This document shows, piece after piece, positions 23,063-25,079 of a DNA stretch of 64,000 nt. A model generated the notes under the pieces. It had not been told where the DNA came from, did not search any database, and saw nothing but the letters and a program-made list of their open reading frames with translations. Made by a program: the position numbers and the translations under genes. Origin of the DNA: a virus (taxonomy: Duplodnaviria > Caudoviricetes); the IMG/VR virus record IMGVR_UViG_3300042350_003801; one strand, written 5' to 3'. Position 1 is the stretch's first letter. Each line of letters starts with the position of its first letter.

Positions 23063-25079
23063 TCAACCAATAGTTGGGGCTTTTAGGGCAATTTCTTGAG
23101 TAGAAACTGCAGCCAAATCTACACTTGACCCATAAGTTTACCATTCTTATGGAGTGGACTATATCATCACCATTGAAGGTGTCGGACGCTTATTCCTGTT
23201 ATTAAGGGAACTATATCCCTCAGGTAGTCTCTGAAGTTTCCTTGAGTGTACTCAAGGCTCACCTGCTGATTGCCCGTGTTTTTTTTGGGGGGTTTCCAGC
23301 AATTCATCCGATGTTTCATCTATCAGTTTCCTAATAGAGCCACTAGATTTTCTAATGGAAAGTTGTGTGCGTTCCTTTCGTGCATCACTTCCATACCAAG
23401 TCCGGCTTTGTTAAGAATATCCGCCCAAGTAGGAATTACTCGGTTTTGACTATCAACAATGGACTGGTTAAAATTAAATCCGTTGCACTAGACCCATAAG
23501 TTTACCATTCTTATGGAGTGGACTATATCTTCATCCCAGTAGGATGTCGGACGCTTAAACCTGTTATTAAGGAAACTCTATTCCCCAGGTAGTCTCTGAA
23601 GTTTCCTTGAGTGTACTCGAGGCTTACCTGCTGATCATCCATTTATGGAGGACTTCCAGCAATTCATCCGATGTTTGCCGTCAAATTGCTTTAACGGAAC
23701 CCCAATTGAGGTTAAATGCCATAGTGCTAACACCAAGAGCAGTAAACCAAATACCAACTACTGGCCATGCGGCAAGAAAGAAGTGAAGTGAACGTGAGTT
23801 GTTGAACGATGCATATTGGAAGATAAGACGACCGAAATATGAATGTGCCGCAACAATGTTATAAGTCTCTTCTTCTTGACCGAACTTATACCCATAATTT
23901 TGGGATTCAGTTTCGGTTGTTTCACGAACAAGGCTGCTAGTGACTAGTGAACCGTGCATCGCTGAGAAAAGACTTCCTCCGAAAACACCCGCCACGCCCG
24001 CCATATGAAACGGATGCATCAGGATGTTGTGTTCTGCCTGGAATACCAACCAATAGGCAGAACGGGAACCTATGTTTCCATAAGGATTGGACTATCTCAT
24101 AATTAATAGAAATTACTATTAATCTCGGGCGCTGATTCTGGTTATTAAGAGGGCTACACCTCTCCAGTAGTCTCTACACTTTACTCGAGTGTACTCAAGT
24201 CTTAGCACGGTATTAGCATATCTATAAGACTTAGCTTTCGCCGTTTTCACCCGATTTATACTACACATTGGTTTAGTTTATGTAGTTAAAAGTTCCACTA
24301 ATCCCAAGGGGCATCGCATCTGAGAATGAACCTTGACCGAAGGGGTAGATTAGGAATACGGCAGTTGCAGCAGCTACGGGAGCACTGTAAGCAACCATAA
24401 TCCAGGGACGCATACCTAGACGATATGAAAGTTCCCACTCACGACCCATGTAGCAGTAGATGCCAATGAGGAAGTGAAATACGATGAGTTGAAATGGACC
24501 CCCATTGTAGAGCCACTCATCAAGACTTGCAGCTTCCCAGATTGGGTACAGATGCAGCCCGATAGCATTTGAACTCGGAATAACAGCACCAGAGATGATG
24601 TTGTTACCGTACATCAAAGACCCAGCAACTGGTTCTCTAATCCCGTCGCAACTTCAAATAAACAACCATATCATAAGACTTAGGTTATTGCAGATTACTC
24701 TGTGAAGTTTGGACCATATCTTCACCCTTTATACAAAGGGGCTGGGCGCTCTAGTCGGTTATTAAGCAGTCTCAACTGCTCCGATGGCCTCTGAACCTTC
24801 CTCAAGTACACTTGAGGCTTGGCTGCTGATTGCCTTTCGGTTTCCAGCAATTCACCCAGTTTCGTCAATACTCTTACGAGTAGGGGACACCGATTAGTTA
24901 ATGTCTACGGGAGGTGCGGCAATAAATGCAAGAATAAAACAGATGGTAGCAGTTAATGCTGTTGGAATAAGTAGAACGCCAAACCATCCCACATATAAAC
25001 GATTGTTCGTTGAAGTAACCCAGGAACAAAAGTCATTCCAGACATTACTTTGTGAACGTGTAGCAATTGTAGCAGTCAT
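23063..25079 (-). CDS. psbA: Photosystem II D1 protein in five exons: 25079-24901, 24648-24280, 24050-23709, 23485-23355, 23121-23063 (1080 nt, 359 aa)
   Basis: Joined exons give continuous D1 ([41 protein letters not shown]); every 5' exon ends in U and every intron ends in G. Confidence 0.97.
23122..23354 (-). ncRNA. Group I intron 4 of psbA (233 nt, in codon L341)
   Basis: P AATTGCTGGAAA, Q AATCAGCAGG, R CTTCAGAGACTA, S GATATAGTCC; P1 pairs exon CCAU with GUGG. Confidence 0.93.
23486..23708 (-). ncRNA. Group I intron 3 of psbA (223 nt, in codon L297)
   Basis: AATTGCTGGAAG, ATCAGCAGG, CTTCAGAGACTA, AAGATATAGTCC; P1 pairs exon AACCU with GGGGUU. Confidence 0.93.
24051..24279 (-). ncRNA. 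Group I intron 2 of psbA (229 nt, in codon M183)
   Basis: AAAACGGCGAAA, AATACCGTGCT, GTGTAGAGACTA, GAGATAGTCC; terminal G. Confidence 0.92.
24649..24900 (-). ncRNA. Group I intron 1 of psbA (252 nt, in codon I60)
   Basis: AATTGCTGGAAA, AATCAGCAGCC, GTTCAGAGGCCA, AAGATATGGTCC; P7 changed on both strands (GGCCA/TGGTC). Confidence 0.93.

Follow-up and report, generated by a model that had tools for sequence, protein, structure and literature searches.

Neighbouring group I introns of a cyanophage psbA gene belong to two separate site families and probably owe part of their likeness to a converted internal tract

T4-like phages replicate by recombination. The group I introns of the T4 td, nrdB and nrdD/sunY genes reportedly recombine with one another, as Hall, Liu and Shub are said to have described in 1989 (Nature 340:574), and Bryk and Belfort (1990) are likewise said to have reported recombination between T4 introns; inter-intron recombination as a mechanism thus goes back to T4. 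The psbA case considered here would be of the same kind, with related introns of one phage recombining by homology although they occupy different sites, and with hybrid introns as the outcome. The T4 hybrids were selected in the laboratory, arose between genes and had rearranged exons, whereas in psbA the exchange would be a short internal patch in natural introns whose exons are intact.

Other described systems resemble the locus in different respects. In S-PM2 and S-RSM88, a psbA intron and the free-standing nuclease F-CphI form a "collaborative homing" system (PMC6083498), and the S-PM2 intron is, like those described below, an ORF-less member of the same family in psbA with a nuclease gene downstream. 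[quoted passage not shown] Spread of introns by reverse splicing was put forward in 2005 for related introns at several sites of one gene, the situation that we also find (PMC1299323); reviews regard the case for it as circumstantial, and one notes that direct experimental evidence is lacking (PMC3984707). Finally, the paper on the cultured freshwater cyanophage S-SRM01 (MW015081) proposes only one psbA intron (PMC8557907), whereas our mapping places three in that gene (sites 276, 750 and 1002), which the record annotates as two partial D1 coding sequences; S-SRM01 psbA is thus multiply split like the one described here, although the two have no insertion site in common. Within an incomplete coverage of the literature, no paper turned up that deals with psbA introns at many sites or with inter-site module exchange in phages.

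The window is a 64,000-nucleotide stretch of a viral record (IMGVR_UViG_3300042350_003801) from a T4-like lake cyanophage, for which the freshwater phage S-SRM01 gives the best annotated match. Its psbA gene lies on the minus strand (25079-23063) and contains four matches to the Rfam group I intron model RF00028 (85.6, 78.5, 74.3 and 67.2 bits). Removal of 24900-24649, 24279-24051, 23708-23486 and 23354-23122 leaves an open reading frame for a 359-residue D1 protein of photosystem II. All intron junctions have the form U|...G|, with insertion points after nucleotides 179, 548, 890 and 1021 of the coding sequence, which serve as site names throughout, and all four introns lack an ORF and are too short to hold a nuclease gene. 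The features are as follows.

24901-25079, minus strand: psbA exon 1, 179 nt; the spliced coding sequence is open over 359 aa
24649-24900, minus strand: group I intron 1, site 179, 252 nt, no ORF; RF00028 at 67.2 bits, and junctions
24280-24648, minus strand: psbA exon 2; Pfam Photo_RC
24051-24279, minus strand: group I intron 2, site 548, 229 nt, no ORF; RF00028 at 74.3 bits
23709-24050, minus strand: psbA exon 3; Pfam Photo_RC
23486-23708, minus strand: group I intron 3, site 890 (codon 297), 223 nt; RF00028 at 78.5 bits
23698-23702, minus strand: internal guide GGGUU of intron 3, exon partner AACCU
23583-23635, minus strand: probable converted tract of intron 3 (P4 3' strand, P6, P6a, P7 5' strand); 51 of 53 positions as in intron 4
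23491-23529, minus strand: 39-nt J8/7-P7-P9 block of intron 3, identical in intron 4
23355-23485, minus strand: psbA exon 4, 131 nt, the loss of which would shift the frame
23122-23354, minus strand: group I intron 4, site 1021 (codon 341), 233 nt; RF00028 at 85.6 bits
23340-23343, minus strand: internal guide GUGG of intron 4, exon partner CCAU
23218-23270, minus strand: matching P6/P6a-P7 tract of intron 4, the probable donor lineage
23063-23121, minus strand: psbA exon 5, including the stop codon
22156-22983, minus strand: putative free-standing homing endonuclease, 275 aa; weak PHROG match (E 1.4e-4)

Introns 3 and 4 score above the RF00028 gathering cut-off of 50 bits (78.5 and 85.6), have a U before the 5' splice site that pairs with G in P1, end in G, and mend the reading frame when removed; on these sequence features they are predicted self-splicing group I introns, new members of a known family. 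A 34-nt insert of two hairpins lies between P7 and P3, in the position of the P7.1/P7.2 insertion of subgroup IA2-like phage introns, to which introns 3 and 4 may belong. The insert is identical in intron 4 and the S-PM2 intron, and the cores of these two are 75% identical. The S-PM2 gene has a single intron, at site 1002, whereas this psbA has four; and whereas the S-PM2 nuclease is F-CphI, the ORF here, which lies 80 nt past the psbA stop codon, is a putative homing endonuclease with weak generic endonuclease matches only. Intron 2 has a deviant P4 and P6-P7 core, common to the site-548 intron of another locus, L005 (219 of 229 positions), and sits on a long tree branch. Upstream of psbA, a PhotoRC-II RNA motif was detected at 25116-25203 (56 bits).

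The initial annotation had described introns 3 and 4 as close sisters with different P1 guides, and this likeness is real and well beyond chance: 184 of 236 aligned columns are identical (78%), compared with 50-59% for the remaining pairs of introns in the gene. The motifs quoted as shared all fall within exact blocks of 39 (23529-23491 and 23165-23127), 33, 23, 13 and 13 nt. The different guides were also borne out, intron 3 pairing AACCU with GGGUU and intron 4 CCAU with GUGG, as was the presence in all four introns of a P6a hairpin and an TTAATAAC...AGCG element. The further statement that the hairpin is inverted in intron 1 holds for the inversion itself but not for the motif quoted: what the intron 1 hairpin (24802-24819) reverse-complements exactly is a related allele, the site-1021 hairpin of L005, a small stem-loop inversion. 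Introns 3 and 4 differ at 22 positions in P1-P2, and the mean P1-P2 identity of sites 890 and 1021 is 0.50, where the median of all 153 site pairs is 0.47; these regions are unrelated and no closer than those of arbitrary pairs of sites.

For comparison, psbA loci were collected in two ways, from a protein search and from searches for intron motifs in viral and metagenome contigs, their exons were mapped, and 366 psbA introns at 18 sites were cut out. Introns occur in 14 of the 80 psbA loci of the protein-led set; the motif-led sets are skewed toward the family of introns 3 and 4, so their counts are not population frequencies, and the pair itself was chosen because its members are alike. Site 890 is occupied in 114 loci, with 61 distinct introns (58 in a first count), and site 1021 is represented by 12 distinct introns, intron 4 included. 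Two mis-split introns, "996" of L336 (which is 992+1008+1021) and "989" of L255, were removed from the trees and the P1-P2 comparison, the former being kept in the permutation test as a single-member site. The collection includes a locus with nine psbA introns and micro-exons of 14 and 19 nt (L210, IMGVR_UViG_3300042987_001812) and two with seven introns each (L268 and L280). In L226 a complete site-890 intron (1280-1510 in psbA orientation) is followed by AT-rich repeats where the next psbA exon is expected, which would make this locus either a truncated psbA or a chimeric contig.

The initial annotation had offered, as the first of two explanations of the likeness, a recent ectopic transposition, that is, reverse splicing of one intron into the other site within psbA, which with the guides observed would have to be followed by retargeting of P1. 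The identity of 78%, by far the highest within the gene, the P9 type common to both introns and a whole-core tree that is compatible with sisterhood (approximately unbiased (AU) test, p = 0.43) speak for such an event. Against it, each intron is nearer to same-site introns of other phages than to its neighbour, intron 3 matching the site-890 intron of L347 at 210 of 225 positions and intron 4 the site-1021 intron of L005 at 215 of 234; this is the outcome that the initial annotation had itself named as refuting the jump. Identity to intron 4 is 83-92% for every one of the 11 further site-1021 introns, but 78% for intron 3. In a maximum likelihood tree of the cores, introns 3 and 4 are each nested inside a strongly supported group of their own site, and a clade of the two is rejected by the AU test once the P6 columns are removed (p = 0.005). 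The same-site matches, the tree and this test rule out introns 3 and 4 as each other's closest relatives. Sites 890 and 1021 are each occupied in many divergent phages, and both are old and widespread intron sites. The P1-P2 regions are, as noted, unrelated; reverse splicing requires a matching guide, and the new site does not match the guide of the donor (AACCU/GGGUU versus CCAU/GUGG). Across genomes, the core identity of site-890 and site-1021 introns has a median of 80.5% and a maximum of 91.6%, so the 84.9% of the pair in the window is exceeded elsewhere. A recent transposition within psbA is therefore highly improbable, and the jump is refuted as a recent event, though an ancient common origin of the two families is possible.

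Nor does the identical 3' tail, which the initial annotation had cited, date the relationship. A 36-nt haplotype of this region is present in eight site-890 and five site-1021 introns, and because the site-890 introns of L241, L248, L287 and L347 have the identical P9 end of intron 3, the 39-nt tail has to be discounted; the J8/7-P7-P9 block is a trait of the 890 and 1021 families and not particular to this genome. Given the same-site kinship and the cross-genome values, most of the likeness is at the family level, and old common ancestry of the two families, or older exchanges between them, with the common P9 type included, is the best reading. Neighbouring introns that are alike need not, then, signal a recent jump.

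A better candidate for a true ectopic move is found elsewhere in the family. The introns at sites 1011 and 1021 have the CCAU target and the GUGG guide in common, and no other of the 153 site pairs is as alike in P1-P2 (23314-23354 in the window, compared with, for example, L135 and L210): the mean identity is 74% and the best 88%, against a median of 47% for all pairs. Eight of the 15 site-1011 introns open with TAGA, the letters with which the 3' exon begins at site 1021, a pattern that suggests a 10-nt upstream move from site 1021 to 1011. The two sites are occupied together in no mapped locus. The reverse-splicing model (PMC1299323) fits this pair better than 890 and 1021, whose guides and targets are unrelated, and while the 890/1021 pair is no test of how group I introns reach new sites, the 1011/1021 pair might be one and is the best candidate that we have.

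A comparison module by module located the part of the likeness that family membership does not account for. In no module but P4b-P6-P6a (23635-23599) is intron 3 further from its same-site relatives than from intron 4; there it differs by two positions from intron 4 and by seven from the best same-site intron, and intron 4 likewise shows two differences from intron 3 and five from its best same-site match. The tract common to the two introns measures 53 nt with two mismatches and is edged by a differing P5 on one side and a differing P7.1 on the other, so that, as in conversion of the T4 type, a bounded tract has an affinity at odds with its flanks. With P6 removed, intron 3 is 99% identical to the intron of L347 over 150 core columns, and as the AU test rejects the joint clade only once P6 is taken out, the phylogenetic conflict is placed in this tract. 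Within it, a P6 double-compensatory variant (GGU/ACU in place of GCC/GGU) is present in one of 61 site-890 introns, that of the window, and in four of 12 site-1021 introns. The module of another site-1021 intron, that of L372, is one base away from intron 3 and one base away from intron 4, which fits a common source of both. Gene conversion between introns, which the initial annotation had offered as its second explanation, is supported for the roughly 53-nt P6/P6a-P7 tract, and for no other part of introns 3 and 4. We consider it probable that the two introns represent old, related families that each arrived by same-site descent, and that the P6/P6a tract of intron 3 was later replaced from a site-1021 intron.

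An assembly chimera of the two intron repeats, to which exact repeats of 33 and 39 nt lying 365 nt apart might give rise, is highly improbable: the tract has two mismatches and is not a copy, the GGTAAG of intron 3 is the version of other phages and not that of intron 4, and the repeats are shorter than an ordinary read. Convergence, in which the two introns came to the same P6/P6a independently, through compensatory and hairpin template-switch mutations, gains something from the recurrence of the GGU/ACU form of P6 among unrelated group I introns and from the tendency of P6a stems to change in complementary pairs, but is very improbable nonetheless: it would require four paired substitutions, a matching P6a stem and a closing pair, to give identity at 35 of 37 positions, and identical 36-39-nt modules are found at more than one site, as are the two structural types of P7.1-7.2. 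Among the 61 site-890 introns, no P6 intermediate with a single change was found. As the P6 variant is also seen in unrelated introns and at psbA sites 230, 276, 408, 556 and, probably, 645, donors other than a site-1021 intron, or convergence, are possible. One 39-nt P6/P6a module containing the GGU/ACU variant is the same, base for base, at site 556 of L088, site 276 of L359 and L368, and site 408 of L366. A scan of genome contigs for the variant gave 16 loci, and the three of them that were inspected held no psbA intron.

Exchange of modules between sites is well supported by the wider collection. Identical modules of 36-37 nt at differing sites account for 18 of 81 P6 haplotypes and 17 of 97 P7.1-7.2 haplotypes, as opposed to none of 101 for P1-P2. 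P7.1-7.2 has two structural types, and both are seen at each of sites 548, 890, 1002 and 1011. In L206, L347 and L349 the site-890 and site-1002 introns of the same genome have identical P7.1-7.2 modules, the haplotype differing between genomes. Such natural swaps reveal which parts of the ribozyme are interchangeable; they also mean that a phage group I intron tree built on the core can be misleading, since its modules may have come from other sites.

There is only partial support for co-resident introns as the main partners in this exchange. Co-resident introns share modules with at most two differences more often than in site-wise shuffles (16 versus 7.6, p = 0.003; 23 versus 8.2, p = 0.0002), and the excess persists when exons are clustered at 90%. 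With the nearest same-site relative as a stricter control, P6 shows no excess (75 versus 81; tails 8 versus 8 and 10 versus 15), and P7.1-7.2 shows one at a single cut-off of three (38 versus 16, p = 0.002). As this control is mostly null, the co-residence signal may reflect module pools at the level of lineages and not conversion within genomes. For the tract in intron 3, the frequencies of the P6 variant (1/61 versus 4/12) lean toward the lineage of intron 4 as a co-resident donor, whereas the permutation and nearest-relative controls are mixed. An unlikely alternative is that the module entered the site-890 lineage elsewhere, in another phage and from another donor site, and arrived by allelic recombination, its co-residence with intron 4 being partly chance within a common pool of modules. 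This would accord with the mostly null nearest-ortholog controls, with the presence of the variant at several further sites and with a private G after P7 in intron 3, which L328 also has and intron 4 does not. It would still need an inter-site exchange, however; the variant is absent from all 60 other site-890 introns, and with few carrier loci overall, chance co-residence would be possible but unlikely. For a broader proposal the case is evenly balanced, namely that cyanophage psbA introns at a minimum of 18 sites form one recombining population in which internal modules (P6/P6a, P7.1-7.2 and P9) circulate, partly by co-resident conversion, between site-specific ends (P1-P2 and the extreme 3' end) that do not change, and in which the site-1011 family is a real ectopic relative of that of intron 4.

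Replacement of the tract from a site-1021 intron, the reading that we favour, could have proceeded as follows. Introns 3 and 4 are S-PM2-type group I ribozymes without ORFs, from separate, established 890 and 1021 families, and each would have entered psbA as a same-site allele from other phages, by inheritance, recombination or homing. Homologous recombination of the non-allelic introns, enabled by the identical blocks of 10-40 bases that their cores have in common, would then have swapped a tract of some 35-55 nt in intron 3, covering P6/P6a and reaching up to P7. The donor would be an intron of site 1021, for which the ancestor of intron 4 is the simplest choice, with the template in the same genome or in a co-infecting one, and one later change in each copy would account for the present mismatches. 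Because an exchange of the patch type leaves P1, P10 and the exons in place, splicing and D1 would be preserved, and with site-specific ends and exons kept it may be nearly neutral.

The outcome would be different for a single crossover joining intron 3 to intron 4. The initial annotation had pointed out that the direct repeats could delete exon 4, and in principle they could; the loss of these 131 nt would shift the frame after Leu297, presumably also remove the C-terminal manganese ligands of D1, and probably be purged. No junction of exon 3, a hybrid intron and exon 5 was found among 113 site-890 5' ends, a collection in which consensus assembly and purifying selection would mask such products. 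Elsewhere in the window, a resolvase-like ORF overlaps a 536-aa TnpB-family ORF (17687-19361; Pfam OrfB_IS605 and Cas12f1-like_TNB), and a 312-aa ORF at 20132-21070 has a match confined to the terminase ATPase domain (Terminase_6N).
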